From contig OZ024740.1 in the NCBI GenBank assembly GCA_964016885.1, positions 181,598,001 to 181,662,000 of the forward strand: 64,000 nucleotides of DNA, read 5' to 3'. How positions within the stretch are numbered: the stretch's first letter is position 1; each line of letters starts with the position of its first letter. The DNA is from Eledone cirrhosa. Lineage: Eukaryota. Below, piece after piece: positions 1-24,627 of the stretch. The translations under genes and the position numbers were made by a program. The notes below the pieces were generated by a model that saw only the letters and a list, made by a program, of their open reading frames with translations, had not been told where the DNA came from and did no database searches.

Positions 1-2624
1 ATCTTCTGAAACTAACAAAGTCAATCTGTAAACGCAGAACTGGATATTTCAAAAAATGTTGCAACCGGAGGAAGACAGGAAGTCGATACTTTGGTTCGTG
101 GTAACGTTCGCTGGCAAAGAACGGGAAAAAACGAATAATACGTCATTAATAGGAGCGGTGAAAAACAATTACGTGCAAAGACAGAACCACGTTTATGGTA
201 TAAAAGAGGTCGTAGACTAATGTTCTCTTAGGTGGTGCATAGAGACGTTCTCTGGCAATGAACGAAAAAACGAAGATAATAAGTCATATGTGGAGCGTGG
301 AGAACAATAGCACGCAAAGACAAAACCACGTAAATGGTATAGCAGAAGTTGTAGACTAAAATTCTAACTAGGAGACCAAATGAATCTCCGCTACAGAGTT
401 AAGAACAAAGTAAATAAATACAATACAGAAGTAATAGAAACAAATAAATACATACACGCAAACAGATACGTACATACACAAGCATACGCAAAACCTTACC
501 ATAGGTATACAAAACCACGCACATATAAATATGTGTGTCTGTGTATGCTTGTGTACAAATAAATAAATAATTATATAAACGTATATAAGTAAATAAATAC
601 GTATATAACAAGCGCACACACATACCTACAAATAAATACACGAATGTTCGGAGACGTATGTCAACTAAAACAAGAAGTACACATATACACACACCCACCA
701 TACGTACGAACCTGCATACTCACGCAGACGCAAAACGCCCGTATACACATAGCCAAACCCTAAATACCAGACTATGTAAAAATTATACGCCATAACAGTC
801 AAATATACGTACTAGAAGGTATACATACCTTCACAAAACATACGGGTAATATATACTTACCTATGCAAATAAGTAAAGGAATAAACAAAACATATAATTA
901 GCTCCCACATCAAGACGTAAAATATCCACGTATATATCGTGCTATCCGTTAGGGTATAACGTGGGGCTGTAATACAGGAAACTTTTGTGCAATTTATGTT
1001 TACAAGCCGAAATTGCCTCAGATTTTGTGTTTAAGATGTGGTCTGTGGCGTAGAGTATTTCCAGGGCCTCAGCGGCGCAGAGGTCACATGGGCTTTTATT
1101 TCCGTTATACGATCTAGCCCTAACTAGGATCTCCCAGTGTAACTTATATTGGGTGTGGTTGTCTTTTAGACTCCAGATATAAGCTGAAAGTGACGTCATA
1201 TTCCTTCTTAGAGGGTAACGAAAAGAATGGGTATGCATGTAAAGACGCTGCTTGAAACTATTGGCGGTTAACCCTATGTAGGCCCTACGGGACGTGGGTG
1301 TTACAACCTTACATTTGTAGACAATGTTACTAGAGAGGCATTTCCCGGATAGGGGACAATCAGCCCGATTCCTACAATTACAGTTAGTACTAACTACAGG
1401 GTTGCACGTGTTCCTACGGCTAGGTAGCTTAGCTAAATTTGAAGCTGTGATGTTATGTGCAAGGTTAGGAGTCGTAGAGTAAGAAATTTTAATAGTATTT
1501 CTATTAAAAATGTTACTATATTTATGTGTAGGGGGAAAATTCTTCGTAATAAGGGAAAGAAAGATCTTAGCTAATGGTGTGGCCTCCTCCATATTATATG
1601 GTGGGTTAAACCAACAAATGCAACGGGATCTATTTCTTCTAGGTCTATTTTCGTACTCTGTATATGCTACCTTATCGACAAATCCACTTCGAGCAAGAGC
1701 TTCATTGTAATAAGTGGAATGGTCGTTGAAAATGCGCTCGTTGGTGGAAAGACGGGAAAGCCTCAACGAAACGTTTTTTACCAGGTTCTTGATTACGCTG
1801 GCAGGATGGTTGGAATGCTTACTTATGTAATTAAGCGTGTCATTCGGCTTTCTATACGGGTAATACAACCCATTCAATAAATTGAGTGTAACGTCGAGGT
1901 AATTAACGACCGAGAGATTGGCCTCAACCTGTATAGAGAGGTTGATGCCTTTAAAGAAGGCTGTGAGTTCTTTTCTGAACCTGTCGCAAGCACGAGGTCC
2001 GCACTTAGTCATGGTCAAATGACCATCGTCACGGTACAAACCACCGCCCGCGTTGGGGTTATTTACTTTGTTCTTAACTCTGGAGCGGAGATTCATTTGG
2101 TCTCCTAGTTAGAATTTTAGTCTACAACTTCTGCTATACCATTTACGTGGTTTTGTCTTTGCGTGCTATTGTTCTACACGCTCCACATATGACTTATTAT
2201 CTTCGTTTTTTCGTTCATTGCCAGAGAACGTCTCTATGCATCACCTAAGAGAACATTAGTCTACGACCTCTTTTATACCATAAACGTGGTTCTGTCTTTG
2301 CGCGTAATTGTTTTTCACCGCTCCTATTAATGACGTATTATTCGTTTTTTCGCGTTCTTTGCCAGTGAACGTTACCACGAACCAAAGTATCGTCTTCCTG
2401 TCTTCCTCCGGTTGCAACGTTTTTTGAAATATCCAGTTCTGCGTTTACAGATTGACTTTGTTAGTTTCAGAAGATCCCGTTAAGGGTGAAAGCAGCGATT
2501 CTTTGCTTACACTTTAATCTGTTATTTTAATAAATATTTGCTCTTCGGTTCTTATATATATGATATATATTTTCCTTATCGAGCTCTCTTTGGATTTTAG
2601 TCTTCAATTTTATTATTATTACTA

Positions 2625-2628
<4 letters not shown>
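1..2628 (-). mobile_element. 5'-truncated Penelope-like element with inverted pseudo-LTR; runs off the left edge of the window
   Basis: 1-417 is the reverse complement of 2059-2475 with few mismatches. It encloses an RT/GIY-YIG ORF and is bounded on the right by (TA)n at 2629-2676. Confidence 0.9.
942..2058 (-). CDS. PLE polyprotein, C-terminal half (RT catalytic motif, thumb, Cys-rich linker, GIY-YIG endonuclease); 5'-truncated
   Basis: Motifs YRDDG, YLDVTLNL, SNHP, WFNPPY, CNCRNRADCPLSGKC, NIVY...YIG, FKQR...H, CDLC...E. The frame is open to the stop. The ORF-track Met at 2096 lies in the inverted arm. Confidence 0.88.
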
Positions 2629-2676
<48 letters not shown>

Positions 2677-2677
<1 letters not shown>

Positions 2678-2865
2678 GATATTAATAAATGGAAACTATA
2701 TTTATAAAACCATATTTATTTCATTATACATATTTCACGGATACCACATTAAATTATGGTATGCCTTCATCAGACAAAATACAATATATAACAGTTTTAC
2801 AAATAGGTTTGACGTACCCTTTAAAATACAACCATTACTTTTGGAGGCTGTCTGGATAGTGATTA
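2677..2865 (-). mobile_element. Non-coding PLE-type HHR element, family A (single arm)
   Basis: Shares aataaatggaaactatatttataaaaccatatttatt and the HHR with 38951-39135 and 59472-59580; abuts (TA)n. Confidence 0.8.
2718..2780 (-). ncRNA. Type I hammerhead ribozyme (family A)
   Basis: Minus strand reads attttgt-CTGATGA-aggc-atacca...tggtat-ccgt-GAAA-tatgta-TA-atgaaat; stem I includes G.U pairs. Confidence 0.7.
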
Positions 2866-3359
2866 GTTCATATAATAAGTCATAGTGTTAAGCACAATTA
2901 GAGAAAGACGGAGAGAAAGAAAGAGAAAAGAACAAAGACAGAGAGATAGAAAGAAAAGAGAAAGAAAAGAGAAAGAAAAAGAGAAAGAAAACCTGGAGAA
3001 ATATCGGAGAGAGAGAAAAGTATGGAGAAAAGAAAGAGATAGATAAATATAGGAGGAAATAATAAAGAAAGAAAAGGAAGGAATAAGAAAAACAAAGGAA
3101 TAAGAAAAACAAAGGAAAGCAACAGAGAGATATCAAGTCATCATACAGAAAGAGAAACTCAAGAGAGAGAAATACTATATAGAGAGAGGGGGACAGTGAC
3201 AACTTTTCGTCATGTCATATTAAGTTAAGTTAACAATTTATATGAAATGAATAATAAAAATATAAATATAAGTATCAATATTCATGAATGGGACATAGGT
3301 ATATAATATGAGAAATATTAAACATTGTTCAATAATGACCATATGTTTAGTTTAGAAAC

Positions 3360-6300
3360 TTGAGATCAATATACCAAAATCTGAGTTCAAAATGTACCCT
3401 TGGTGATAAGCACTTTAACAGGAAACTAGAGTGGCTTAAACAGATAAAGCTAAATCAGGATACTATAGAGAATACCAATAGATATCCCGACAAAATTGAC
3501 GGTATAAACATGGCCGACACCTCATTAACAGAAGAGTTCAACAACAAAAACACCAATATATATGGGAACGCAAGAATAGATAATGACGAGATGTCTGTGC
3601 TGTGTTTGCCCCCGAAATTTGCGACATTCAGGAAGGTAAATATGATTAGTTGTCTGTCAGAAATAGAAAAATCATTTACAAAACTACGCTGGAGCATCAA
3701 AAACAACAACACACACGCATTCAATGCCTCTCACCAGCACCACATTCTTAACAAACACACAGACACAGAAAACAAGTAATGACAGTAGCACAGAAATCAT
3801 AGAAATAAGGGAAAGTAATAGGATTAAAAGGAGAAGGGAGACTAAGAACAAAGAGAATAACCAAGACGAACACACAGACACACAAAATAGGGTAGATAAC
3901 AACAATGAGCCCGTGGAAAGAGACAGGAGTAATTATGAGAGACATAGAAACAACCATGAGGCTGTTGGTGGAAATAGAAATAGAAACAACACAACTAACA
4001 ATAATAACACTAGTACACATAAAGCAGCAGCCTGGAACTCTCCGTTTTATAATCCCTCCGATAAATCATTCGACCTGCGACGAGTCCACGCCACGACTTT
4101 ACCATTTAACAGACGCACGCAATTGCCGTCGCAGGTCGATGAACAAACAGAAGCACAATTCAGTATAGCTAGATCAGAACTTAGAAATATTATAGAACAG
4201 TATAGCAAGAAGCATAATAGAATGGAGGCCCAGCAACTGGGAGAAAAATCTGCAAATGGCTTGCGTAAGCTCATGCAGCGCTCACGTAATGGAGAGATAG
4301 CATGCTTTCCAACAGACAAGTCTGGCAGAATGTCGGTTGACAGCCTGCCAAACTACATCCAGGCAATGCAACCCCACATCACTAACACAAGAGAGGTAAC
4401 ACCACAGGAGCATGAGGATAGAGAAAAAGCCCTCAATGCCCATATGGTGATGTGGACGAATATAATGCAGCCCAACAAAAGGACTGCCAACAACTTCCAG
4501 GCCTGGAACAATGACGTGCCGGCGTTGTATGGGCTTCGAAAAGACCATAAAACGGGCTGTGACCCTGTCGCGGGACCACCAACACGGCCAGTCTGTGGAG
4601 CTAACATTGCTAGTAACTACAGACTGTCCTACTTCCTCTCCCTGATCATAGCGCCCCATCATTGAAATGTCCCCAGATGTATGTGACAGCACGCAGGACC
4701 TCCTCAGCAGAATCGGCGTGGGTAACCGATCTGGAAACCTAACAAACTGCATAATAGGCAGTATGGATGTTGTGTCCCTGTATCAATCTATTGAGGTGGA
4801 TTTTGCTGTGGAGAAATGCGTAGAAATGATCAGTGAGAGCAAGGTTGAGTTCCGTGGGATTGATACCAGTGAGCTGGGACTCCTACTTAAGCTTACCTAT
4901 AGTAATAGTTACCTAGACACATATGACCTTAGCAACCTGTGCCCTACAAGACCAGCAAGAGGCAGACCATCTACCATTACCTCAATGGCCAAGAAAACCC
5001 AAACAGATAGATGGAACGGGTGGACCAGAGTCATACGGACACCCGAAAACCACGATGAACTGAAGAAAATGATTGCACATGCGGTAGGGGCCAGCATAAA
5101 ACTAACCCTTAAGGAACATATGTTCAAATTTAATGGAAATACATATGCCCAAGAGGAAGGAGCAGCCATTGGTGTTAGCATTGCAGGCGACATAGCTAAC
5201 TTATTCATGGTATGGTGGGACAGTAGACTTAAACTTAAACTTAAAGAACAATTAGAAGACAGCTTAACCCTGATAATGTACTCCCGCTACGTAGATGATA
5301 TAAACATCGTAGTTAAGACACCCCCACTAGAGAACAGTCAGGAACTAGAGAAAAACACAATGGAAAGCATCCAGCAAATAGCAAACTCCATCCACCATAG
5401 CATTAGAGTTACTATAGACTACCCAAGTAGACACCCCAACCATCGATTACCTGTACTAGACACAGAGCTCTGGTTAGATACCATTAACAACCAAAAACAA
5501 ATCCTCCATTCCTATTATGCCAAACCCATGACTTCCAAACATCTGATCCACCGAAACTCGGCCATTTCGGACCATACCAAAATCAACATACTGATTGTGG
5601 ATTTGGTACGGGTGATGAGAAATGTGTCCCGCATGTGCAACCCCAAAGAACTAGAGAGACACGTACAACACTTCATCCACCGTATGCAGTTCTCTGGCTA
5701 CAATCAGAGAGATAGAATCAGAGTGTATAGAGGAGCCAGAACCAAATTGGAAAAAATGGTAAATAATGACATAAATGGGACCTGCCCCTTGTATAGGAGC
5801 AAATTTTGGACTAGAATAGAAAGAACTAGAAACAAGGCTTATTGAATAAACTCATGGTATGATAGCAATAAATACCAGAGTGTAATGTTCATCGATACAA
5901 CACCTAGAGGCGAACTAGCCTACAAATTTAGAAGGGCCCTAAATAAACATAAACTCAATATTAAGATAGTAGAAAGACCAAGTACCTCCGTAAAAACACT
6001 TATTAGCAAGACATACCCTTTTCAAAGACCCTCATGTATAGATAAGAAATGTATAACCTGTAAAATAAGCCCCCATATTAACTGTAAAACTAGAAATGTA
6101 GTGTATAGCATAAGATGTACTGAAGGACAATGTAGAAACAAAAATATAGTGTACATAGGTGAGACAGCTCGTATTATAGGGGAACGGATAAATGAACACT
6201 GGCGAGACCTTCAAGATAATAAAGAATCATCTGTACTCTACCAACATGCTAAGATAGAACACAAGGGTAAATTAGAGAACATAGAAATAAAAATAGAATC

Positions 6301-6418
6301 TACACACAGAAAAGATGCAATGTTTAGACAAATTACAGAAGCAATAAACATAAAAGAATTACAACCAAAATTAAATAGAAAATATGAGTGGAACAGCAAC
6401 ATCACAACTTACAACTAA
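3360..6418 (+). pseudogene. PLE RT-GIY-YIG polyprotein, Naiad-like motifs; two frameshifts and one in-frame TGA
   Basis: Consecutive ORFs give LPPKFA...KLRW, PTDKSG, LYGLRKDHK, RPVCG, GSMDVVSLY, GAAIG, RYVDD, DYPS...LPVLD, RMQFSGY, PLYR, CxxxxCxxC, NVVY...YIGETAR. Breaks at ~3750, ~4660 and TGA 5843-5845. Confidence 0.9.
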
Positions 6419-6630
6419 GGACAAAATGAAAACACACGCACACATAGAACAAACAACCAACCAATAACATGTAAATAAATAAATAAATAAACAAATAGAT
6501 AAATGAACATAAACACACACAGACACCCGGATGTGGCGCATGCGCAAACTGAGCACACAACACACACACAGAAACAAAATGGCGTAGAACAGAACAAAGG
6601 AGAGGCACAGAAACAAAGAAAGGAATCCCC

Positions 6631-6675
6631 AGTCACTGAAGAGGTCACAGAGTGTGTGACGAAAGGACTATGACT
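6631..6675 (+). ncRNA. Minimal type I hammerhead ribozyme in PLE 3' pLTR
   Basis: agtca-CTGAAGA-g-gtcaca-gagtg-tgtgac-GAAA-ggac-TA-tgact: 5-bp stem I, 6-bp stem II, 1-bp stem III. Confidence 0.85.
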
Positions 6676-6825
6676 ATATATAAACAACTATCTGGTTGTG
6701 GAACCAACCAACCAACCAGAAATTTATAAATTTATAAATTTGTAAATTTATAGATATATAATAAATTGAAGTGAAAGCAACTGGTGCGTGTGTTTCTTAT
6801 TGGCAACATGACCCTCCCAAAGTAT

Positions 6826-6871
<46 letters not shown>

Positions 6872-7139
6872 CGGCGATGAATTAGTTTAGCGAGGTCTTT
6901 TATATGAAATCGTGTGTCGAAACAGATATTGTTATACTTGGTGAGGGTCATATTTGAGTAATATTGCCAGTATTAATAACAGAACACACTCACTGTTTGG
7001 TTGGGTTTCGCTTCTCGCTGTCTTTTATGTCTGCGATCTAACTTACTCGGTCCTCAATGTTGCCATTGACTGACCGACGGTCAAAAATAATATAGATACA
7101 ATATAGACACAAACACATATATATAGTTTACATAATTTA

Positions 7140-7177
7140 CATAAATCTTTCGTTGCATATCTGCAACATCGTCAGTG
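7140..7177 (-). ncRNA. Minimal hammerhead ribozyme with eroded stem I
   Basis: Minus strand: ca-CTGACGA-t-gttgca-gata-tgcaac-GAAA-gatt-TA-tg. Confidence 0.6.
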
Positions 7178-7454
7178 GTGTTATATTTTTTTTTCCTCCT
7201 GTTGTGTTGTATGTCTACGCCATTTTTTTATTCAGTCTGTCTATATATTTATTTATTTATTTGCTTGTTTGTTTATTTTATTTTGTCTTCTTTGCGCATG
7301 CGTTTGCGTGTGTGTATAGTGTTATGTGTGCTGTGTGACTAGTGTGTATAGTGTTGTCTGCTGGGTGACTAGTGTGTGTTTATGTGCTTGTTGTTATTGT
7401 GCTTGTGTATGTATTTATTTACCTTATTTTATTTTATTTTATTTATTTACTTAT

Positions 7455-9248
7455 TTATACTTCTCTTAGGTCAGTGTGGTTTGTTTGGGTGTTGTTGTTG
7501 TTCAACTCATTCTTTCTGTTTAGCTTTGGTCTTCTAAATTCTATTTCACTGGCCTCTCTGATTTGCCTATCTGCTGGATCATTCCTATGTTTAGATATTA
7601 TTCTAATTTCTATGTTGTCTATGTTACCGTCATGTTGTTGTCTAGCATGTTCGTATAGTACTGACTCGTTTTTTCGTCCTTTTAGTTCCCCCCAGTGTTG
7701 GTCTATCCTTTCACCTATGCTACGAGCTGTCTCATCTATGTATGTTGTTGTCATGTTTCTGCAAGTACCCTCTGTACATCTTATGCTATAGACTACGTTT
7801 CTAGTTTTACAGTTTATCCAGGGGTTCACCTTACATATGATACATTTCCTATTGGTACAGTGGGTTTTCTTAAAAGGGTAGGTTTTGCTGATCAGGGATT
7901 TTATGGTGGTTCCTGGCTTTTCTACCACCTTTATTTTTAAGTGGGTCTTTCTCAGGGCCTTTCTACACTGGTTAGCTAATTTCCCTGCAGGGGTGGCGTC
8001 CACAAACATGACACTCTGATATCTCTGGTTGTCGTACCATGATGTGGCCTTCCCTATCTTATGTCTAGCCCTATCTAAGCTATTCCATGATTTGCTCCTG
8101 TATATTGGGCAAATTCCTTTCATGTCCAGTTCTATGAGGGTCTTATACTTTTCCATGGCTCCTTCGTATACTCTGACTCTGTCTCTTTGGTTGTAGCCAG
8201 AGAACTGCATGCGGTTGATGAAGTGTTGGATGTGTCTTTCCATTTCTGTTGGGTCGCACATGCTGGACACATACTTCATCACTCGTACCAAATCTGCGAT
8301 CAGAATATTAAACTTAGCACTACTGGACATTGCTGAGTTTTTGAGTATCAGGTATTTGGAGGCCATGGGTTTAGCATAGTGTGAGTGGAGAATTTGGGCT
8401 CTCTCGTCTATAGTGTTAATCCAGAGTTCTGTGTCTAATACAGGTAGTCTATTGTTAGGGTGTTTGGAAGGGAAGTCGATAGTTACAGTTATACTCTGGT
8501 GTATGGAATTAGCTATCTGCTGGATGCTTTCCATCGTGCTACGTTCTAAATCAAACTTGTTAGTGCTCTCTAGTGGGGGTGTTCTTATAACTATATTGAT
8601 ATCGTCTACATAACGAGAGTACATGATGAGGTCTGTGGAGCTTTCATTAAGGAGATCTTTAAGTCTCCTTTCCCACCATACCATGAAAAGGTTGGCAATA
8701 TCACCAGCTATGCTGACGCCGGTGGCTGCTCCCTCATTTTGGGTGTAGAATTTCTCATTGAACTTAAATATGTGGCCCTTTAGGGTAGTTTTGATACTAG
8801 CCCCTATTGCATGTGCGACCATTTTTCTTACCTGATCATTGTTTTGGGGGGTCCGTATAGCTTTGGTCCACCCAACCCACCTTCCTATGGGAGTCTTTTT
8901 TGCCATTGAGGTTATGGTGGGGGGTCTACCTCTTATAGGTCTACTAGGGCAGAAACATCTAAGGTCATGGCTGTCTAGGTAGTCAGTGTCGTAGGTAAGT
9001 CTAAGTAGGAGGCCCAGTTCATCTGTGTCGAAGTCGCAGAACTCCACCTAACTTTCAATGATCATCTGCACACATCTTTTCACAGCAAAATCAATGTTAA
9101 TGGATGGGTACAGTGACACCACATCCATGCTACCTATTATGCAGTTGGATAGGCTCCTGTTTTTGTTGCACTCACTGATTCTGCTGAGGAGGTCCTCTGT
9201 ACTTTCACATACATCTGGGGACATCTTGATTATGGGGCGTATAACCAC
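7455..9248 (-). pseudogene. PLE RT-GIY-YIG, paralogue of 3360-6418; one TAG at 9048-9050; 5'-truncated
   Basis: GSMDVVSLYPSI, RYVDD, DFPS...LPVLD, RMQFSGY, CxxxxCxxC, NVVY...YIDETAR. Colinear with the + strand copy, which has Lys at the TAG position. Confidence 0.9.
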
Positions 9249-9476
9249 TGTATTATTTTTGACCGTCGGTCAGTCAATGGCAACATTGAGGACCGAGTAA
9301 GTTAGATCGCAGATATAAAAGACAGCGAGAAGCGAAAACCAACCAAACAGTGAGTGTGTTCTGTTATTAATACTGGCAATATTACGCAAATATGACCCTC
9401 CCCAAGTATAACAATATATATATATATATTACTGAAAAAGAACAAATGAACTATTATGACATTATAACAAGTTTAT

Positions 9477-9523
9477 TGTCGACAGTCGTTTCGTCCGACC
9501 ACATGGTGGGACTTTTCAAGGCA
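9477..9523 (-). ncRNA. Hammerhead, U3-A8 variant (inverted copy, one stem I mismatch)
   Basis: Reverse complement of 11277-11323 with two substitutions. Confidence 0.65.
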
Positions 9524-11276
9524 TATAACATGTGATCATTATTTACATCAACGTATCACTCAAGGCTAGCAGTTTGAAATTGTGGTATACAATTGTGGGC
9601 TTGGAGTTCGTAATATACCACCCCAGTCAAATCCACACTGGTTTTTTAACAACATAGCATGTAGACCAATACATCCTACGTAGCGAGACCTTGGACTTAG
9701 AACCGGCAGGCTGGTCTATCGCGAAAGCGTACAACCCCTGAAACTAAAAGATCGAACGGACCACATCCAGCAACCACTGGCTATTAGATCCACAGGTACA
9801 TCTCCCAGAGAGTCCACGCAACTGATAATGAATCCCAGTTGATCCATAAACTTTTAAACAAGACCAGCTGTGCCTGGAGCTATGCAGATGACTACATACG
9901 CATAATGGATATCGTGCCTGGAGCTATGCAGATGACTACATACGCATAATGGATATCGCGCCCACACGGTCACCAGTACTGTTCATCCTGTTGTATGTAT
10001 GTAAATATCCGTGCGTGGGATATCCCTGAGTACATTTTCTTGACCATCAATTGTTAATCGATTGTTTGTTAATTAGGCAGGAATATACCATTGTGTCTGT
10101 GCTAATCTATGTGTTGCTGTGTATGTGTAAAGTATCCGAGCGCGGGATATCCCTGAGCTAATTTTGCCTGACTGTTAATAGTGTTTTGATTACTTGTTAA
10201 TTAGGCAGGAATATATATTATTATGTCTTTGTTAATCCTGTATCAATAATTTTATAATAATATTTTGTGATAATACATTGTTAGATTACTGAAGCTACCT
10301 TATACCTTAATTAGGCAGGAATATATATTATTATGCCTTTGTTAATCCTGTATCAATAATTTTATAATAATTTTTTGTGATAATACATTGTTAGATTACT
10401 GAAGCTACCATATACCTTCTTAAAAATACATTTTTTAATTATTGTCTTTTTACTTATGTATTTTCTTATTTACCACTTTCTTTAATCTTGCCCGACTTGA
10501 TAAACTCCTTGAATTGCTCCCTAATTAAATTACTTAAATTACTTAAATTATTGTACCTATTATGCTTAAGTTGTATCTGTTGAAGCAGCCCTTTGAAAAT
10601 TCCTCGGATATCCCAAATACCGTCATTTTTAACTTTTAATGTATAATTTTCCTCAATTCGTATTTATATATATCCTTAAGGGCTCTCTAAAATGTTAATT
10701 CTTCGAAGGGTCTCTCGGAAGAAGTTCCTATTAAAAATATTAAAGGGGCCTTTTCTGAGAGAATTATAGAAGGCTCGTTGAATTAACCTTTAATTGATTA
10801 GTTTCTTTCAACTTAGAAGCGAATATCAAAACTTCGTAAGTTTTCTGAAATTTGTAAACGTGATCTCGGGGAAGAAGGTTTTTTTCTTTCGGAGAAAAAT
10901 GTTTTTTCTCTAGAAGGAATTTCATAGGAAACTTTATATATTTTTTAGGGAAATTTTATATTTTTATTTTTTATTTTATTAGCCTCTTAATTTCTTCTAG
11001 TCTAGTAGGTTTATTGGAGCCTGTAAGCTTTATGCACTTATTGAGGGATTTTCTAAGGTGCTTCTACGGGACCCCAAGTCTTTTAGTTTACTGTTAATGC
11101 GTAAATTATATATTATCTAATTTTTAAACTTCAATCCCTGACCCCGACAACTAATTTAAAAGAGCCCCCTTAGAATATAGACCCCAACTATACAAGCAGA
11201 GTTGCTGATGTATACTACAATTTCAAACTGCTAGCCTTGAGTGATACGTTGATGTAAATAATGATCACATGTTATA

Positions 11277-11323
11277 TGCCTTGAAAAGTCCCACCATGTG
11301 GTCGGACGAAACGGCTGTCGGCA
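11277..11323 (+). ncRNA. Type I hammerhead, U3-A8 core variant
   Basis: tgcc-TTGAAAA-gtcc-caccatgtggtc-ggac-GAAA-cggctg-TC-ggca, followed by AATAAA. Confidence 0.8.
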
Positions 11324-11476
11324 ATAAACTTGTTATAATGTCATAATAGTTCATTTGTTCTTTTTCACTAATATTTCTGCTCTGCGTATACGCATAGAGC
11401 TTAACTAGCTACCGTCACATATTTGGTAGGTCAGACGTGATAATCGCGATTCACATACGACCTACCATACATCTTA

Positions 11477-11539
<63 letters not shown>

Positions 11540-11566
11540 ATGTAATAAACAACATAAGGCAATTAT

Positions 11567-11624
11567 TCCATTTACCAGTGGTTTCTTAAAAGCAAAAGGT
11601 TTTGCTTTCAATCCTCAGAATGAA
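11567..11624 (-). ncRNA. Type I hammerhead ribozyme
   Basis: Minus: ttcatt-CTGAGGA-ttgaaagcaaaa-cc-ttttgcttttaa-GAAA-ccactgg-TA-aatgga. Confidence 0.8.
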
Positions 11625-11633
11625 AAAATCCTT

Positions 11634-11691
11634 TTCATTCTGAGGATTGAAAGCAAAACCTTTTGTTTTTAAGAAATCACTGGTAAATGGA
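11634..11691 (+). ncRNA. Type I hammerhead ribozyme
   Basis: ttcatt-CTGAGGA-ttgaaagcaaaa-cc-ttttgtttttaa-GAAA-tcactgg-TA-aatgga. Confidence 0.8.
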
Positions 11692-11790
11692 ATAATTGCC
11701 TTATGTTGTTTATTACATAATAATAATAATTAAGCTCTGTTGCCTACATAGAGCACTCTTTTTTCCTGGACTTTTCCGATGGAATTATTT

Positions 11791-11876
<86 letters not shown>

Positions 11877-12250
11877 TTAGAAACACACAGATACATGCGG
11901 ACACACACATATACATGAATGCATCCGCACCCAACTGTGAGTTAAGGTGTGTGTCCGCATGTATCTGTGTGTTTCTAAATATATTGTTAATAACTCCCTC
12001 TTGTCGAGCAATCTTTGAAGTGTGGGGACAACTGGAAAGCCTCCATTACTCATACTTCTAGCCTTCTTCACCACCTCTTCTGCGGCCTCGATATGAATGC
12101 CCCCTCCGCCTCCGTGGTATTTTCTTCGTGGTTATAAGAGGCTTAGCTCTGTTTCTCGACCGTTATATCGCGTGACTAACTCCCCCTCCGCCTTTTGGGA
12201 TTCTTTCTCACGTCGTGTAGACGCGTTCTTGAGACTAGTAAAATGAGGTA

Positions 12251-12340
12251 TCCTCTTGATAAGTCGGCAGACCTCGCAGGGACTCTATGTCTTTATGATA
12301 TATTGTTTTTGTTTATGCCACGAAACTACGTAGTCGAGGA
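12251..12340 (+). ncRNA. Type I hammerhead, U3-A8 variant, long stem II, palindromic stem III
   Basis: tcctc-TTGATAA-gt-c-ggca...tgcc-ac-GAAA-ctacgtag-TC-gagga. Confidence 0.8.
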
Positions 12341-12845
12341 ATTTAGGAGCAGTTTAGGTATGATACATTTTATTACTAATTATATCTAAATGTTTCTTCT
12401 CTCTTCATAATGTATTTTTAACTCTGATACTGGTTCAGTCTAGTTCAACTGAATTGGTCTGTCCCGGTCATTCATTGAGCAACATCGGTGAAGTTGGCAC
12501 CCTTAACTCACAGTTGGGTGCGGATGCATTCATGTATATATGTGTGTGTCCGCATGTATCTGTGTGTTTCTAAATATATTGTTAATAACTCCCTCTGGTC
12601 GAGCAATCTTTGAAGTGTGGGGACAACTGGAAAGCCTCCATTACTCATACTTCTAGCCTTCTTCACCACCTCTTCTGCGGCCTCGATATGAATGCCCCCT
12701 CCGCCTCCGTGGTATTTTCTTCGTGGTTATAAGAGGCTTAGCTCTGTTTCTCGACCGTTATATCGCGTGACTATCTCCCCCTCCGCCTTTTGGGATTCTT
12801 TCTCACGTCGTGTAGACGCGTTCTTGAGACTAGTAAAATGAGGTA

Positions 12846-12935
12846 TCCTCTTGATAAGTCGGCATACCTCGCAGGGACTCTATGTCTTTATGATATATTG
12901 TTTTTGTTTATGCCACGAAACTACGTAGTCGAGGA
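12846..12935 (+). ncRNA. Type I hammerhead, U3-A8 variant (second unit)
   Basis: Same as 12251-12340; stem II has ggcata/tatgcc. Confidence 0.8.
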
Positions 12936-13004
12936 ATTTAGGAGCAGTTTAGGTATGATACATTTTATTACTAATTATATCTAAATGTTTCTTCTCTCTT
13001 CATA

Positions 13005-13079
<75 letters not shown>

Positions 13080-13286
13080 TATATTTTGTCAATTGTTGTG
13101 CCACATATATATATATATACACGAGAAGGAAATTACTAGAAGTATTTAGATGAGAATCAAGCTATAGAGAGATCTTCTATATCCATGCCGGATCCAAGTT
13201 ACTTTTAACTTTAAATTCACCCAATGTACTCTTATAAGCCATCATGGAGAAAACAACAGACGTGTTTCGATCTTATTATATCTCCT

Positions 13287-13402
13287 CTGAGTTCAAATCC
13301 CGCCGAGGTTAACTTTGCCTTTCATCCTTACGGGATCGATAAAATAAAGTACCAGTAATGGACTGGGTAATTGCTGGCCTTGTGCCAAAAAGTAGAAACA
13401 AT
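13287..13402 (+). mobile_element. SINE family 1 (truncated)
   Basis: B-box-like gagttcaaatccc followed by gccgaggttaactttgcctttcatcct...gtcgataaaataaagtaccagt; many copies in the window. Confidence 0.75.
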
Positions 13403-14080
13403 TATATCCTCTCTGTGATGCTTATACATTTATCAAGTCTACTTCGCTGCATACGTCTTGAAATTGCAAGTATAATCTCAGTTTTTTGGAGTTTGTTTCC
13501 TACTCATCATACAATTCGTTTTGTTTCTATTCACCCCTTGCTCACATTTATCCTTCCCAGGCTAACCTGCAATGCAATGATGGATAAGTTCAATATTAGC
13601 CGCATCATACTCAACTGTCAAGGACTGAGGCAAATGTCAGGGACTTTGCCTAAGTTCTTTTTTTATTATTTTGTATATGAATAAAAACAATATGGCAAAC
13701 AATTTACTCGTTACAGAGAAAATGTGTAAATAATTGTTTGTATATATTTCTTTATTGATACGCATTACACTTCTATATCTAAATCTCAACAGATCAGCTT
13801 CTGGAGGACATATCAGTCGACATTCTGTTCAAGTGTTGATTGACTTTTGTTTCTCTTTTCTTTAATTGTTTATGTTATCCTCTCAAGCTCCGTCTCTAAC
13901 AAATGGATTTTAATGTATTTTCGTTTCTTTGTTTTCTTTATTATTTGTTTGAATTTTTCTATCAATTCCTATGTGTTTATTTACTCTTTCCTCTCAATGA
14001 AAAGCAATATTGTTAACATTAGTCACCAAATCAACACTAACTAGTTAAAATTAATTCTACAAATGCACACATTCACAAAG

Positions 14081-14114
<34 letters not shown>

Positions 14115-14639
14115 GTGTGTGTGTGTGCGTGTGTGTGTGCGTATGTGTGCATGGTTGTGAGTGTGTGTGTGGTTGTGTGTGTATGCAAAAGACAAACACA
14201 AATAACAATGCAAACAACACAGTACAATGAAGAAATATCTTATTAGTTTTATCTTTGATATAGTTGGAAAAGACTCTTAAAGTTTCGGGTGATTGTCTTT
14301 CATCAGAACATAGATTGAGGAATATATAAATTGGGGAGAGGGGCAGTAGAGATGAGATGGAGATGGTGAGAAGGGAGTAATCGGAGGCAAAAGTGGAGGA
14401 AAAGTGGTAATGAGTCATGGTATATTGGTATAAAGCTAAAAGCTATCATAAACACTAATGATCCGAAAAATATTCAGGTAGAAATTCAATATATATATAT
14501 CACAAGGTTCAATACTCATTTAAATAAAAGTGTTGTCATTAATGATTCAAGCTCAGTGTAACATGAGATGAATATTTTAAGAATTAAACTTCATTCTAGG
14601 AAATCCGACAATCGTATAAGTGAGGTGGCACAGAGTACA

Positions 14640-14830
14640 TCTATCTATATACTACTAAACCTCTGTGATTTTGTGCTTGTCTGTAATTTAATACAGCCAA
14701 AAGGGCGCATAATGGGAAAATACTTTGAAAGAAAGTTGCCCCTGAAATCGGAATACAAATGGAATAAAACAAGTTTCTCGTAAATCGGAGCATTGACCCC
14801 GAGATACGGGGTTTTTCCGGGTACCTTGAC
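14640..14830 (+). mobile_element. Dispersed repeat with Helitron-like 5' end
   Basis: Begins tctatctatatactactaaa; diverged inverted copy at ~26490-26685. Confidence 0.45.
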
Positions 14831-15252
14831 AGAGAGTGACAAAGCGAGTGAGAAGGATAATGTTTGTGAGAAAGTAGATTGAAATAGAGACAAAGAGAGT
14901 GGGAAAAGGAGACAGAGAAGGAAAATGGAAGAGAGAGAGAGAGAGAGGGGGGGAGGAGGGCGTAGATCTTGTGGTATTCTTGAAATAAATTATAACAGGT
15001 GGCTTCAAAGAATCGAATACAGCATTACTGTATCTAACTCAAATTTGGTGACTGAATATTAAGTCATATGTATCATATAAATTGTGTTAGGACAGAAGGT
15101 ATGTGGCAAATATTTCATGCTAAATGGGAAGGGTTTCTAAGTGTGTGTGTGTGTGTCTTTGACGAGTGTATATGGGTCCCAGACACCCATATATATATAA
15201 ATATAAATATATATGTATACACACAGCCACGCACATAAATACACACCTCCCC

Positions 15253-15301
<49 letters not shown>

Positions 15302-15302
<1 letters not shown>

Positions 15303-16310
15303 CCAAGAAAACGAAAAATCAGTGATGCATCTGGACTTAGTTTATTTCGTGTTACAAATGTTTCGCCGGCATGTAGCTCGAGTCATGGTCCTTGTATGGA
15401 TCAGCCTAATTCTACTTCTGCGGGTTCTTTCAGACACGGCTGTTATGTCCGGAGCAAATTTTATCACTGGGGTGTTGTCATCAAAACAACCCCTCAAAAA
15501 ACCTTCTTTCCACTCTTGTCATGCCATTGGCTGTTTTTACTCCACGTCATCCCAAGTTCTGGTCAGTATCTGCTGCCACACGGTTCATCAACCATTTTCC
15601 GTCCGACATATTTCAATGGAGTCATGCTGGGTTCAGTGCTTCACACGTCTGCTCACACTCAGAGTAAGCAGCCACACATACTAGAATAAACACATAGTAA
15701 CACACACATACATATATTCAGATATACACCTATCTATGCATTCACACTCGTACGTCTACATGCTCAGACACCCACACCGCCACATACATACATCGCAGTA
15801 TGTATACTCGCACACCCTCTTTCCCTCTCTCCCATGGGCCCAGTCACACACACTTGTTGATACATGCCGCCACGAGCCTTCTGACTGTTCGGTATCAATT
15901 GGGTAAGCATGTCATATTCAAATATATACATATATACATACACATGCGCGCACGCACACATACGGCCAACCTTCTATACATTTAAATGGAGTAAAAACAG
16001 ACAATGGCATGACAAGAGTGGAAAGAAGGTTTTTTGAGGGCTTGTTTTGATGAAAACACCCCAGTGATAAAATCTGCTCCGGACATAACAGCCGTGTCTG
16101 AAAGAACCCGCAGAAGTAGAATCAGCCAGATCCATACAAGGACCGTGACTCGAGCTATATGCCGGCGAAACATTTGTAACACGAAATAAACTAAGTCCAG
16201 AAGCATCACTGATTTTTCGTTTTCTTGATAATATCTACACTCTACTCTGATGAATATCGAGTGCTAATTTTGGCATACCGCCTACGGAAGCACCATAGCT
16301 ACCACTGTAC

Positions 16311-16313
<3 letters not shown>
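15302..16313 (+). mobile_element. Non-autonomous PLE-type element with inverted arms and tail
   Basis: 15302-15543 is the reverse complement of ~15987-16228; tail actc...gagtgct at 16239-16265; TA runs both sides. Confidence 0.8.
16093..16183 (+). ncRNA. Hammerhead-like motif (inverted copy at 15348-15438)
   Basis: cgtgt-CTGAAAGA-long imperfect stem II-GAAA-catttg-TA-acacg; one extra core nucleotide. Confidence 0.6.
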
Positions 16314-16344
<31 letters not shown>

Positions 16345-16347
<3 letters not shown>

Positions 16348-16922
16348 AGTGAAATAACAGGAGGCCAAATATGTTGAATTTCCTTAATTTTTTATTTCTG
16401 CATGCTCTATGCACATTTCAATGATCAGGTTGCACAAGAACCAGGACACATCGTCTGGTATAAATTGCGTATTAGATGTATGTCAACGAAATGGTGCTAG
16501 ACCCTAAGGAAACAAACAGAAAAAAAAAGAATGAAAATGTGTGTTTATGTTTTTGACTAAGAGAGGAACGAGCCAGCATGTTGCCATAAACACATTTTTC
16601 CTCTCTTTTTGTGGTTGTTTCCTTACGGTCTACCACCATTCCGTTGGTATACATCTATTACGCAATTTACACCTGAAGATGTCACCGGGTTCTTGTGCAA
16701 CCTGGTCTCTGATATGTGCATAGTGTATGTAGAAATACAAAGTTAAGGAAATTCAACATATTTGGTGTTCTGTCATTTCACTTTATGATACATTTACTCG
16801 CACCAACAACATGATTCAACATCGAAGATGGATGAGTTGCATAACCTTCAGTACTTTCTCGTATTATGTCATGGTTAACATTGCAGATTGACCAATTCTA
16901 ACCAGTGATATGCTACCAAATT
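16345..16922 (+). mobile_element. Older non-autonomous PLE-type element with inverted arms and tail
   Basis: 16345-16446 is a diverged reverse complement of 16685-16786; actc(16796)...gagt(16834) tail. Confidence 0.7.
16668..16727 (+). ncRNA. Type I hammerhead, GAAA mutated to GATA in this arm
   Basis: tacac-CTGAAGA-...accgggtt/aacctggt...-GATA-tgtgca-TA-gtgta; the left arm retains GAAA. Confidence 0.6.
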
Positions 16923-17819
16923 TATATATACACACACACTCACGTATATATATATATATATATATATATAATTGGGGCTTCTCATTTCATTTTATATCAT
17001 ATACATGTCTGTGTATATTTTAATTATTTAAAAATTATTTTTAAGTGAACAAGATTTTTTTAAAAATATTTTTAAGGGAATGTGACCCAGCGGGTCACAT
17101 ATATAATAAAGAAAATGCAAAGATGAAATATTAATTCAGTTTATTCTCTTGACACATGTTTCTACGCAAAAATAAATTAAAAATTATTATACAGCTTTCC
17201 TCAAACTAGACTATCCATGAATACTTTAGCCCAATTGAACAGAGCACTGAGACAAAGTTTGAAAGGATCGAAGTTAAATTCTTCGTAGCGGCTGCTATCC
17301 GTTTTCCCGTCTATTGGGTTCTTTTCCCGATTTCATGTGCTATTATTTGTACTGTTTTCAGTTATTTTCTGCGTTTGAGAATTTTACATTTTCTAAGAAA
17401 AAATTTGTTTGCGTGTGTATGTGTGTATAATCTAATCCAATCAATCCATATCAGTCGCAATTACCACGTGTGGCCAATTGTGGATGTGCGATGTTATTTA
17501 ACCCATAGTTGTGGTTGATAGCTGTTGACTCTGAGGAGTTCATCTACACTTTCAACAGCTCTTGTTTTGTTTTTGTTTTCTTTTGAACTGCTGGGGTTCC
17601 ACTTACCCTTTTCACCAGACCAGGTTTTGCCTTATGCCCTACGTTTCAGCTGGAAGCTTCTTGTCTCCTCGAAAAGAGAACTTGAAAAATTAATTTGTTA
17701 TCTATATGTGTAGGCCTTTAACTATAATGCAGTTTTGTGATTGCAGTAGTACCACAGCCAAATGCCTCAGCTAAAGCCATCATATATATATAATAAGTTA
17801 AACTTACTCTTGGAATGTG

Positions 17820-18615
17820 CAGACGAGATGATGTTACTTAACTCGACAGAATATGATCTTCGATAGGTTTCATTCCGAGTACTTCATGGCTGGAAGGAAA
17901 ATCAATGCGGTGAAAACTGAGACACTCGTCTTCCAAAGGAAGTCTGCGCATTGCACGCTACATGTGAATGGGGTCCTACTGAAGCAGGTAGAGAAGTTCA
18001 GGTACATCGGGGCCCTGTTCACGAGTGATGGAAGGCAGGAAGCTGAATTAAGTGCAAGAATTGAAAAAGCTGGTGCAGTAATGCGCCAACTTCTTCATTC
18101 AGTATTCTGAAGAAAGAAGGTAGGTGTAAATGCCAAACTCGCTGTCTTCAATACGGTTTTCGTACCAACTATTACCTATGGCCATGAATCTTGGCATATG
18201 ACCGAAATAATATGTTCGCGAATACAAGCGGCCGAAATGAGGTTCCTCTGAAGGGTCTTTGGAGTAACGTTACGCCATAACGTGCGTAGCTCGGAGATCA
18301 GACGATCACTTCAGGTAGAGACGCCACATCTCCGAATTGAGCGATCACTTCTCCGATACTATGGGTATATGGTTAGAATGTCTCAGGGACGAATCGATGG
18401 ACAGATTCTACGGGCGAAACTAACAGGTAGACTACGCAGGTGTAGACCCCAACCAAGATCGTTGGATAACATCGATGAGCTTGGCAGGTCAAGTTTGGGT
18501 ATCCAGTCGGATCAGTTGGAGATGGTTGCTTCTGGCAGGACTCGCTGGGGGTAGTGTTTGAGGACTTTGTCCACACTAGCCTCTCAGGAATATGTGGGCA
18601 AAGAAAAGAAGAAGC
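17820..18615 (+). pseudogene. RTE-clade LINE 3' fragment
   Basis: QVEKFRYIG, ARIEKAG, TYGHESW, IQAAEMRFL, LRYYGYMVRM; contains stops. Confidence 0.8.
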
Positions 18616-18807
18616 AGTTTTACAACTTCACGTTAACAAGCAGTACTGAACTGGAATACTTTTATAGACGTAGACATTATAAACAGTAATGTTTATTTTG
18701 ACTGGATTTGAACTCATAGAGTGGTGGTGAGATGGAGGGAATACCGCAATGCAATTCTAGTCAATTCAGTAGCATTGTTATCATCATTATAGTTACTAGT
18801 GATTGAT

Positions 18808-18920
18808 TGAGTTCAAATTCCGCTGAGGTTAACTTTACCTTTCATCTTTACGAGGTCGATAAAATAAAGTTCAGTTATGTACTGGCATAATTACTGGCCC
18901 TGTACTAAAAGTAGAAACAA
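18808..18920 (+). mobile_element. SINE family 1 (truncated)
   Basis: Similar to 13287-13402. Confidence 0.7.
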
Positions 18921-20751
18921 TAATTGTTACTAGTGATACCACTAACACTATGGTTCTTATTTTGATTATTGCCACTACTACGACACTTTAAATTACGGTC
19001 GATTAATAAAATAATCAATTAATTAATTTGGTGGCTTGAAAACTATCGCTACCACTGTGTGTTGATGATGTTACTGTCAATGCTGTTGATATTATCGTTA
19101 TTACAGCTGTTGTGGCTATCTGGTGGGCAATTTATCTTGACACAAATGTCACACAGTACTGCTCCGAGGGCATTGTTCCATATCCTATTTTGAACATCTT
19201 GGTCTGATTGTGGACGTCTGGCTGACTCATCCGGTCTTCACACTCCCATACTCACACACACACGCACTTACATTCATACGCACTCTTAATGGAATACATT
19301 GGTAGAAACAAAACACACACATATGCACATATGCATGTGTATATATACACAGAAGTAGGCATGCATACGTAGTCAAAACCTTACATACGCACACACAAAA
19401 AAATTGGGCCGATGTTTATATAAACCCAACATTTAACCGATCACTACAAACACTTTATTGTTTGATTAATTACCAGTCTGACGAACAAATAGACACTGGG
19501 GCGGGTCCACAACCGCTATGTGTGACCTGGAGCCAATCTGCGAAAAGCGCGTAACACGTTGATACACAATAAAAAAATAAATAGATGTAAACGAAATTCA
19601 TCGTTCTTCTTATTATATATACACTCTGTTTGTGCACCTCTAGTACTGGTATTGTGTGTGTGTGTTTCAGAGAGAAAAGGTATTCAGAAGGGGTGGATGG
19701 GAAGAAAGAATTTCACAATGAACTATTACGTTATTTATAAACAAGTGAATGCTATTTCCAAATGCGAAAACCTATTTCGGCATCCCATATTCGTTTGCCA
19801 AATATTTCAGTTCCTGGTAATAATACAAATGAATGTATAATAAAATAATATCAATATTCATAGCTCTGTTCCATAATAAAATATAAATCTGAGAATGTGG
19901 TCAGCTGTTACAAATATCAGTGTACTTATCAGTTGGCATGAGTTGAAGTGGAATAGTGTATTATTATTTTTGCACGTTTATGAAGATAAAAAATGGGTAA
20001 ATATAGGCGAAAATATATGAACTGAGAGTAAGGATTTACAGTCTGGTGTATATTATAAATTCATTGCAACAACACAAAATAAACAATTATATAAAGATTG
20101 TTTCTAAATTAATGTTGATAGAATCGGCCCCAGTACATGATTGGAATTCTTTTTTTACCCCAAAAGCAAGGGTAAATTCACCTCAGTGGAATTTAAACTC
20201 AGAAATTGAAGTCAGTTGCTATAATTAACAGTTTGCAATTTAGGTAAAATACACCGAAGGTACTTTCCCATAATTTTCTCTCCTTCGCTGTATTTTGGCC
20301 AATTTCCTCAGTTGTTATTTATAGCAAACGGCCGTATATACAGTTATTTCTGCATCTGAGGTCCTTGAATGTTCTATGAATTTCAGAACTCCTCAGTGCT
20401 TCGAAAGTTCGATACTATATATACAATGTTGTTTTCATTTAAAGTTCTAAGAATAAGCATTCTAATTTGGTCAAGGGTTTTGTGAGAGATCGTTTAGTCC
20501 AATAGTTTCAACAGTCAGCATGTATCTAACATATTCATAGTCCGATTACTCGTAGCGGCTACTAACAACTCTTTTTCCTTCATACGAGAATTTTACCCAA
20601 TTTTCTAAACTATTATTGGCAACAATCGACTGTGTTTACACATATTTTTTCATCTGAGTTTCTTACCCTTTCTATGAGCTATATAACTATTTGGTACTAC
20701 GAAGGTTAGATGCTTTACATACAATATATATGTATCTATTCATACATGGTG

Positions 20752-22377: not shown

Positions 22378-22442
<65 letters not shown>

Positions 22443-22498
22443 GTAAGTATGTATGTATACGTACATACATATATGTATACAGACGTACAGTAGCATGC

Positions 22499-22531
<33 letters not shown>

Positions 22532-22694
22532 CGTATATACATACAGGTACACATACATATATGTACGTATCAGTTTAGCGGACGCTCATTATAGCGCCCG
22601 CTTTGTTCGTTTGTAAACAAACTGAACAGCCTGAATTTATGCCGCACGGTGTTAAGGCAACCACGTCACCTTTTTGTTCAACACTGACACAGGA

Positions 22695-22737
22695 ACGATG
22701 TACTAGTTTCAAGCTTGTTAGCTATCATCAGCACCGT
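22695..22737 (-). ncRNA. Minimal type I hammerhead
   Basis: Reverse complement of 23564-23606. Confidence 0.8.
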
Positions 22738-22973
22738 ATACCCATCTGCCAGATAGTTGAACGTTCGAAAGTATATACTTTCCTTATGAAAATTAACGGC
22801 TGAGCAGCCTAATTTGCATATCGAGTGAGTCAAATCGGTCAGGCGCACCGAAAACGATGAGTTGTAATAAAATGAAAACGAAATTTCATTTCTCACTCTT
22901 AGTACGGCACTTACTTAAATGTAAGTATGTATGTATACGTACATACATATATGTATACAGACGTACAGTAGCA

Positions 22974-23029
<56 letters not shown>

Positions 23030-23283
23030 TACATACAGGTACCCATACATATATGTACGTATCAGTTTAGCGGACGCTTATTATAGCGCCCGCTTTGTTC
23101 GTTTGTAAACAAACTGAACAGCCTGAATTTATGCCGCACGGTGTGAAGGCAACCACGTCACAAATTAAGGTAACCACGGCATCAATTCAGGCTGTTCAGT
23201 TTGTTTACAAACGAACAAAGCGGGCGCTCTAATAAGCGTCCTCTAAACTGATACGTACATATATGTATATATACCTGTATGTA

Positions 23284-23327
<44 letters not shown>

Positions 23328-23563
23328 TGCTACTGTACGTCTGTATACATATATGTATGTACGTATACATACATACTTACATTTAAGTAAGTGCCGTACT
23401 AAGAGTGAGAAATGAAATTTCGTTTTCATTTTATTACAACTCATCGTTTTCGGTGCGCCTGACCGATTTAACTCACTCGATATGCAAATTAGGCTGCTCA
23501 GCCGTTAATTTTCCTAAGGAAAGTATATACTTTCGAACGTTCAACTATCTGGCAGATGGGTAT

Positions 23564-23606
23564 ACGGTGCTGATGATAGCTAACAAGCTTGAAACTAGTA
23601 CATCGT
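23564..23606 (+). ncRNA. Minimal type I hammerhead
   Basis: acggtg-CTGATGA-t-agc-taacaa-gct-t-GAAA-ctag-TA-catcgt; palindromic ACTAGT stem III. Confidence 0.85.
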
Positions 23607-23757
23607 TCCTGTGTCAGTGTTGAACAAAAAGGTGACGTGGTTGCCTTAACACCGTGCGGCATAAATTCAGGCTGTTCAGTTTGTTTACAAACGAACAAAG
23701 CGGGCGCTATAATAAGCGTCAGCTAAACTGATACGTACATATATGTATGTGTACCTG

Positions 23758-23793
<36 letters not shown>

Positions 23794-24028
23794 TGCTACT
23801 GTACGTCTGTATACATATATGTATGTACGTATACATACATACTTACATTTAAGTAAGTGCCGTATAAGAGTGAGAAATGAAATTTCGTTTTCATTTTATT
23901 ACAACTCATCGTTTTCGGTGCGCCTGACCGATTTAACTCACTCGATATGCAAATTAGGCAGCTCAGCCGTTAATTTTCATAAAGAAAGTATATACTTTCG
24001 AACGTTCAGCTATCTGGCAGATGGGTAT

Positions 24029-24071
24029 ACGGTGCTGATGATAGCTAACAAGCTTGAAACTAGTACATCGT
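24029..24071 (+). ncRNA. Minimal type I hammerhead
   Basis: Identical to 23564-23606. Confidence 0.85.
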
Positions 24072-24242
24072 TCCTGTGTCAGTGTTGAACAAAAAGGTGA
24101 CGTGGTTGCCTTAACACTGTGCGGCATAAATTCAGGCTGTTCAGTTTGTTTACAAACGAACAAAGCGGGCGCTCTAATAAGCGTCCGCTAAACTGATACG
24201 TACATATATGTATGTGTATATGTGTACCTGTATGTATATATG

Positions 24243-24348
<106 letters not shown>

Positions 24349-24584: not shown

Positions 24585-24627
24585 ACGGTGCTGATGATAG
24601 CTAACAAGCTTGAAACTAGTACATCGT
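24585..24627 (+). ncRNA. Minimal type I hammerhead
   Basis: Identical to 23564-23606. Confidence 0.85.

Follow-up and report, generated by a model that had tools for sequence, protein, structure and literature searches.

A preference for (TA)n targets has been published for Naiad and almost all Hydra families of Penelope-like elements (PLEs), including Hydra-1_Obim, and the Hydra clade is defined by a CxCX5C linker, CxxC and CxH motifs and a nuclease without a Cys pair, according to the available parts of PMC8557442. A Poseidon protein has been described that in vitro cleaves and extends both strands from two internal reverse transcriptase (RT) start sites bounding the tail (PMC11167929), and the frequent presence of a tail at one end has been stated qualitatively (PMC8557442; PMC3846280). 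In plants, the SaTar arrays of guayule and rice are described as unrelated families lying side by side, linked by (TA)n and non-nested, with occasional deletion fusions (PMC5907723). Here we describe a 64,000-nucleotide stretch of Eledone cirrhosa DNA (contig OZ024740.1 of assembly GCA_964016885.1, positions 181,598,001 to 181,662,000 of the forward strand; hereafter designated the window), in which positions 1–13,077 consist of seven distinct hammerhead-bearing PLE families (E1–E7) placed back to back.

This train shares with the SaTar arrays, as these are presented in the accessible text of PMC5907723, the joining of unrelated units by (TA)n without nesting (here at five of six junctions) and a probable fusion by linker deletion, whereas the SaTar units are non-autonomous Mutator-like DNA transposons in plants and those found here are retroelements in an animal, with autonomous partners. 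The accessible portion of PMC8557442 does not describe multi-family trains for Hydra, and that of a repeat annotation of Octopus vulgaris (PMC13282606) lists active Penelope families and describes no such trains. TA targeting by such PLEs is already known, and the train is well explained by this known biology. Its unusual point is a long, telomerase-sized insert predicted in the RT of E3 and E4, which is absent from the C-terminal-endonuclease clades aligned in PMC8557442.

Architecture of the train and its TA targets

Unit bounds in positions 1–13,077 were set by self-BLAST, a listing of open reading frames (ORFs) and annotation against single genomic copies. The units comprise four Hydra-like families (E1, E2, E5 and E6), two sister families with a C-terminal endonuclease (E3 and E4) and one 595-bp retrozyme-like family (E7), the assignments being predictions from motifs, the ORFs of other copies and a modelled fold. 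A preliminary description of this DNA had proposed seven distinct PLE or hammerhead units lying back to back, and self-comparison, ORFs and copy annotation bear this out. The order of the units is retained from it with revised bounds, in that the end of E2 moves from 3350 to 3404, and E3 now spans 3403–6829, E4 6871–9413, E5 9430–11478, E6 11536–11793 and E7 11871–13007. The further claim that nearly all junctions are pure (TA)n holds for five of the six internal junctions, where the linkers measure 16–77 bp, and another TA run lies at the right end; it fails at the E2/E3 joint, a head-to-head fusion through 2-bp microhomology that contains no TA. Other E2 and E3 copies diverge beyond the fusion point, and the fusion is unique among 30 E3 5' loci. 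The single (TA)n array seen in the preliminary description is likewise recovered only as linkers: TA runs sum to 309 of 13,077 bases, that is, 2.4% of the train, below the 4.3% of the background sample, so that the array amounts here to short linkers. The train also reaches about 2.5 kb upstream of the window with a copy of the E4 family (92% identical) and a 138-bp piece that carries a hammerhead motif, giving nine units in about 15.5 kb.

The flank tabulation against background that had been suggested with the preliminary description was run on 30 top-scoring loci per family and 40 background stretches of 10 kb, taken at round coordinates on six large contigs, and it revealed (TA)n enrichment. 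All seven families end in TA genome-wide at the sampled loci; TA follows 308 of 334 deduplicated 3' ends at 11 termini (the E3 and E4 anchors partly cross-match), compared with TA within 20 bases at 1085 of 20,000 background positions (5.4%). A control repeat resembling a short interspersed element (SINE) had TA within 120 bases at 2/29 and 5/29 match edges, the latter on its 3' side. Moreover, 29 one-arm insertions carried TA on both sides, indicating that TA is the target and not only a tail. At free 5' ends, TA lay within 20 bases in 40 of 114, which is a lower bound because many apparent ends are alignment breaks. Targeting of (TA)n by these families, as proposed earlier, is thus supported. 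The control is an abundant repeat with a tRNA-like head that is not TA-targeted; it occupies 13286–13405 of the window, with copies at 18808, 40106, 43249 and 49914. At least 20 further recurrent sequence ends adjoin TA runs in the sampled loci, which suggests that there are more TA-associated families than these seven.

TA runs were also shared between elements. The TA-array edge opposite an element was occupied in 46 of 343 cases (13.4%), against 36 of 606 background edges (5.9%; odds ratio 2.45, p=1.6e-4), and TA-linked neighbours belonged to different families in 19 of 23 pairs. Apparent nesting was seen once, with E4 inside E1 (locus L207). Linker reuse is real but modest, and the train in the window probably lies in the tail of the distribution. 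Together, the seven families account for 5.6% of the 400 kb of background sequence and match 19 of the 40 stretches. The train illustrates in compact form how PLEs that target microsatellites stack in a safe niche, which fills about that share of the sample from this 3-Gb genome.

Probable serial insertion and its alternatives

In two-arm insertions, two arms meet head to head. Such junctions joined copies of the same family in 129 of 133 cases; a clean cross-family join was found once, and three others had 19–45 bp between the partners. When the tails at 128 junctions were classified, 32 extended past the locus and one end could not be assigned in a further 23; of the remaining 73 two-arm insertions, 70 had exactly one tailed end (expected 36.5; p=7e-18). 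Their outer ends were TA in 141 of 146, and the two arms of a copy nearly always stop at 3' end points that are fixed and differ from each other. Where the element sequence reads on past its end point, it shares a median of 2–5 bases with the TA run at 8 of 13 termini, the other five being unscorable, with a background of 11% for TAT/ATA; this overlap of the template into TA suggests primer–template pairing at the start site. The one-tail pattern fits the two-start-site finding of PMC11167929. With the Anolis Poseidon PAc, as characterized in the available parts of that paper, the insertions described here would share the two RT start sites bounding the tail, the cutting and extension of both strands and a predicted dimer; particular to the present case are end points sharing a few TA bases with the target and a one-tail rule counted in genomic copies of seven families.

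Very probably, the train is a stack of seven PLE families that arrived serially, each by cutting of TA with a GIY-YIG endonuclease and target-primed reverse transcription, leaving TA for the next. The families are likely to have come one after another to TA repeats, and the window copies, whose top matches within their own families are 92–99% identical and differ between units, fit such serial arrival. At each landing, a TA repeat would be cut by the element's own or a borrowed GIY-YIG endonuclease before target-primed reverse transcription starts, and the TA left on both sides would serve as the next target. Presumably, cDNA synthesis is primed from the two nicked ends of the target, each at a different one of two internal RNA start sites and assisted by short pairing with the TA primer, and the two cDNAs then join head to head. 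An endonuclease that cuts TA linkers but rarely the bodies of elements would place different families next to one another without nesting. With neighbours across a shared TA run in modest excess, the nine-unit train would be the long tail of an ordinary process, and the E2/E3 fusion most likely arose by later deletion of a TA linker.

Several points weigh against this account. The sampled copies are the top-scoring, young ones, and the library consists of these seven families. We infer the splitting and preservation of the TA target, no empty target site having been seen among the sampled loci. Other families showed no excess within 1.5 kb, where they occurred at 55 of 202 focal loci, the corresponding counts being 31 of 120 for background tiles and 6 of 29 for the control repeat, so that any landing-pad effect is local and small; the self-renewing landing pad of the preliminary description is accordingly reduced to the modest reuse of shared linkers. 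Finally, the adjacency of the units is read from the assembly. Such adjacency could also come from a false join at microsatellites during assembly, or from a block rearranged without serial insertions, as all parts of the train are high-copy repeats and the listed contig pieces of four public runs at 9120–9800 measure 44–129 bp, none of them bridging a junction (depth there is not copy number). No RNA run was listed among the public runs holding this sequence. We nevertheless consider a join or rearrangement highly improbable, because the linkers are short, every element is complete internally and its inversion junctions are locus-specific, the 202 loci contain 19 other places where different families are paired across TA, and the window lies inside a 443-Mb contig. 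For the one junction without TA, insertion of E2 and E3 in a single event, with the RNAs of two PLE clades priming the two target ends, would explain the head-to-head geometry and the 2-bp microhomology, both of which match same-family inverted junctions. We judge this improbable, however, given the single clean cross-family join among the 133 junctions and the three with intervening bases, and given that deletion fusions are described in plant arrays (in the text available of PMC5907723). Moreover, the E2 and E3 ends are both untailed, a state found in 2 of 73 same-family pairs, which makes a later deletion likelier than joint insertion.

Serial insertion by itself would merely divide a TA run, whereas slippage by a telomerase-like RT could extend or create the repeat, so that the linkers would be partly new synthesis and the site would grow with each insertion. 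Pure TA at 3' ends had a median of 25 bp versus 17 expected for a random cut in background runs, and unpaired 3' flanks exceeded 5' flanks (26 vs 17, p=0.007), although the unpaired set included internal TA tracts of E6; in maize, empty TA sites are likewise reported to expand upon insertion of TAFTA (cited in PMC5907723, of which part was available). In the paired test of the 29 one-arm insertions, however, the 3' and 5' flanks did not differ (medians 21 vs 15, p=0.48; compound 46 vs 54, p=0.40), and the unpaired difference was dropped as evidence for slippage. The likeness of paired 5' and 3' flanks does not support synthesis specific to the priming end, and longer flanks would also be expected if long pure runs were preferred or if slippage occurred in the host. 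Lengthening of TA by RT slippage, raised in the preliminary description, is therefore unlikely and finds no support in the paired flanks, though flanks do exceed the simple-split expectation. The E6 family (L153–L182; position 11793 in the window) shows a variable (CA)n of 1–13 units between the tailed end and the TA run. Tailed E6 ends carried additional C or (CA)n, of up to 13 units, in 22 of 30 cases versus 12 of 332 at other termini; the template continues differently, and the opposite flank was TA in the two-arm E6 cases inspected. On the other hand, E6 may favour compound arrays in which (CA)n islands were already present. Reiterative copying and a preference for (CA) islands both explain it, and it serves as a hint.

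For studies of PLE integration, this genome offers young families with ORFs (E3 and E6) and a simple target. The serial-insertion account predicts that a two-arm insertion has a tail at one end but not at the other and that primer and template pair over a short stretch, and (CA)n reiteration in E6 is a further prediction offered here.

Hydra-like families and the RT insertion of E3 and E4

In translations of E1, E2, E5 and E6, the CxCX5C linker and the CxxC and CxH motifs around the catalytic E and N are present, and the nuclease is a C-terminal GIY-YIG without a Cys pair between the GIY-like and YIG-like motifs. These characters, shared with the Hydra clade including Hydra-1_Obim of Octopus bimaculoides as shown in the available parts of PMC8557442, point to four Hydra-like PLE families, and the (TA)n target, 5'-truncated inverted arm, tail and 3' hammerhead motif are also held in common. 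Since E2, E5 and E6 are present in the window as 3' ends only, their coding parts were read from longer copies elsewhere, including intact 715-aa E6 ORFs at genomic loci L256 and L257 and an E5 ORF at L258. E6 has both the RWK and DKT motifs, E5 has RWR and DKT, and the E2 copy has NKT, its printed ORFs not covering the RWK region; the N-terminus of E1 lay outside the sequence read. The RT3–RT4 spacing in E6 is 64 aa, without a fingers insertion, and by eye is similar in E2 and E5, E1 being truncated there. A Pfam search gave no domain match in E1. Hydra units are generally <3 kb, whereas the E6 and E5 units measure 4.7 kb (L256 1958–6796) and 5.3 kb (L258 2024–7743), both with long 3' untranslated regions (UTRs); likewise, File S2 lists canonical hammerheads for Hydra, in contrast to the U3-A8 core of E5 and the U4A core of E1 (PMC8557442, as far as available). 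E5 had also been considered as a Naiad element with half a hammerhead, which was rejected, its parent ORF being Hydra-like.

Two side observations concern these families. The E6 3' UTR contains a second, diverged hammerhead copy (L256). Sequences related to the E2 3' end, but older, lie beside TA at 38950–39570 and 59470–59890 of the window and carry hammerhead cores; those at the latter site form an inverted pair.

E3 and E4 are sister families with 71% DNA identity over 1.77 kb. Both translations have a C-terminal GIY-YIG with a Cys pair, a CX4CXXC linker and a DKS motif; Pfam matches for RT and GIY-YIG are weak and under the curated cut-offs. The endonuclease is C-terminal in open frames of at least 1088 aa and not N-terminal as in Naiad/Chlamys PLEs, and assignment to those was thereby ruled out. 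Between RT3 and RT4, a conserved insertion of about 70 aa is present in the window copies and at L302 and L305, and 95 homologous proteins were found. The RT3–RT4 spacing is 135 aa in E3; of 41 aligned rows, 34 have 134–137 aa and seven lack one of the two anchor columns. Many of the 104 scored E3 genomic matches have identical scores and open frames of >1,200 aa, which suggests that E3 is young. The named E3 homologues come from Octopus (58–76% identity over short stretches). In its N-terminal region, E3 has a low-complexity stretch rich in Asn, Thr and His, from which the window copy lacks about 220 bp.

With Nematis and Neptune, as displayed in Figs. S1, S2 and S7 of PMC8557442, E3 and E4 share the C-terminal GIY-YIG with a Cys pair and a CX2-5CxxC linker, and their short linker resembles that of Nematis. 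They differ in having DKS in place of DKG and an RT3–RT4 spacing of 134–137 aa; our counts from Fig. S1 give about 64–70 aa in Poseidon, Nematis and Neptune and about 122 aa in human telomerase reverse transcriptase (TERT). Thus, the lack of a fingers insertion that marks Nematis and Neptune does not extend to E3 and E4, and the abstract of the same paper attributes the fingers insertion to PLEs with an N-terminal endonuclease. A motif search of its supplement, which omits some Repbase PLEs, found no member of the E3/E4 lineage, and a literature search outside subscription papers and Repbase returned only this paper and two others. The lineage may already stand under Neptune or Nematis; possibly, it is an unnamed PLE lineage. 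In that case, its long fingers insertion would bear on how often this telomerase feature arose among PLEs.

The predicted model of the E3 RT is confident, with a pLDDT (predicted local distance difference test) of 90.9, and in structure comparison telomerase RTs rank first (best Z 13.0, root-mean-square deviation (rmsd) 9.1, 300 aligned; human TERT, Z 11.7, rmsd 4.4, 283 aligned). Tribolium TERT and group II intron RTs are only about 1–3 Z away, so that homology of the E3 insertion to the TERT insertion is not established. The predicted fold appears closest to TERTs. A sequence search of solved structures with E3 gave weak bacterial RT matches only, and the Atlas gave unnamed clusters.

Hammerhead motifs, E7 and neighbouring features

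Hammerheads were predicted by pattern and inspection. Every unit has a hammerhead-shaped motif near its 3' end, with canonical cores in E2, E3, E4 and E6 and non-canonical ones in E1, E5 and E7 (Table 1). The U3-A8 core recurs in 36 of 40 E5 copies, where it is compensated, and in 54 of 54 E7 copies; the U4A core of E1 recurs in 61 of 67 family copies, though its activity is doubtful. An Rfam scan of positions 1–20,000 gave no hammerhead match and only hairpin matches below gathering scores. The U3-A8 core was rejected as new, having already been reported in Schistosoma PLE hammerheads (PMC4209133, in the part available).

E7 forms 595-bp tandems at many loci, 99% identical across the top matches, and its six-frame translation contained no recognisable coding frame. 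With a type I hammerhead motif per non-coding tandem unit, E7 appears retrozyme-like, features it shares with animal non-LTR (long terminal repeat) retrozymes as described in the accessible parts of PMC7229834 and bioRxiv 10.64898/2026.07.22.740005. It differs from them in its direct PLE footprint (TA target, inverted arm and two end points 170 bases apart) and its U3-A8 core.

Table 1 Units, linkers and motifs of the train in window coordinates (family and hammerhead assignments are predicted)
Feature	Position	Strand	Description
E1 main arm	1..2058	-	5'-truncated Hydra-like PLE, no tail; 3' UTR runs ~60–70 bp beyond the window start, upstream
E1 ORF remnant	2058-942	-	YRDD, CxCX5C linker, GIY-YIG, CxxC, CxH
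E1 inverted arm with tail	2059..2628	+	hammerhead-shaped motif, CAGAAGA core 2468-2474
(TA)n linker	2629..2676		48 bp
E2	2677..3404	-	3' UTR of second Hydra-like family, no tail; hammerhead core CTGATGA 2773-2767
E2/E3 head-to-head fusion	3403..3404		2-bp microhomology, no TA
E3	3403..6829	+	nearly full-length PLE, no tail; ORF broken (frameshifts, one stop); hammerhead core CTGAAGA 6636-6642
E3 protein features			DKS motif, 135-aa RT3–RT4 spacing, CX4CXXC linker, C-terminal GIY-YIG with Cys pair
(TA)n linker	6830..6870		41 bp
E4 main arm with tail	6871..9247	-	ORF 9047-7455; hammerhead core CTGACGA 7175-7169
E4 inverted arm	9248..9413	+	no tail
(TA)n linker	9414..9429		16 bp
E5 inverted arm	9430..9591	-	no tail
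E5 main arm with tail	9594..11478	+	long non-coding 3' UTR of third Hydra-like family; core TTGAAAA (U3-A8) 11281-11287
(TA)n linker	11479..11535		57 bp
E6	11536..11793		fold-back of two short 3' ends, fourth Hydra-like family; hammerhead core CTGAGGA 11640-11646
E6 arm	11536-11629	-	no tail
E6 arm	11630-11793	+	tailed
(TA)n linker	11794..11870		77 bp
E7	11871..13007	+	non-coding 595-bp unit; 1.8 tandem copies 11947-13007 and inverted arm 11871-11947
E7 hammerhead motifs	12256-12262 and 12851-12857		core TTGATAA (U3-A8)
Closing (TA)n run	13008..13077		70 bp

Upstream of the window, a 51-bp piece between the E4-like copy and E1 (L031 9864–9914), bordered by the 5' end of that copy and by TA, resembles the right half of a hammerhead and had no other match among the analysed sequences. 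Past a 2-kb spacer, another cluster joined by TA extends from 8.5 to 4.6 kb upstream of the window (L031 1440–5400). It comprises a hammerhead-bearing element in fold-back form and two E1-like copies, one old and one internally deleted. Downstream, at 22440–24845 of the window, 465-bp tandem and inverted repeats lie in TA runs with CTGATGA...GAAA motifs at 22731, 23570, 24035 and 24591, and these are likely to represent another retrozyme-like family.

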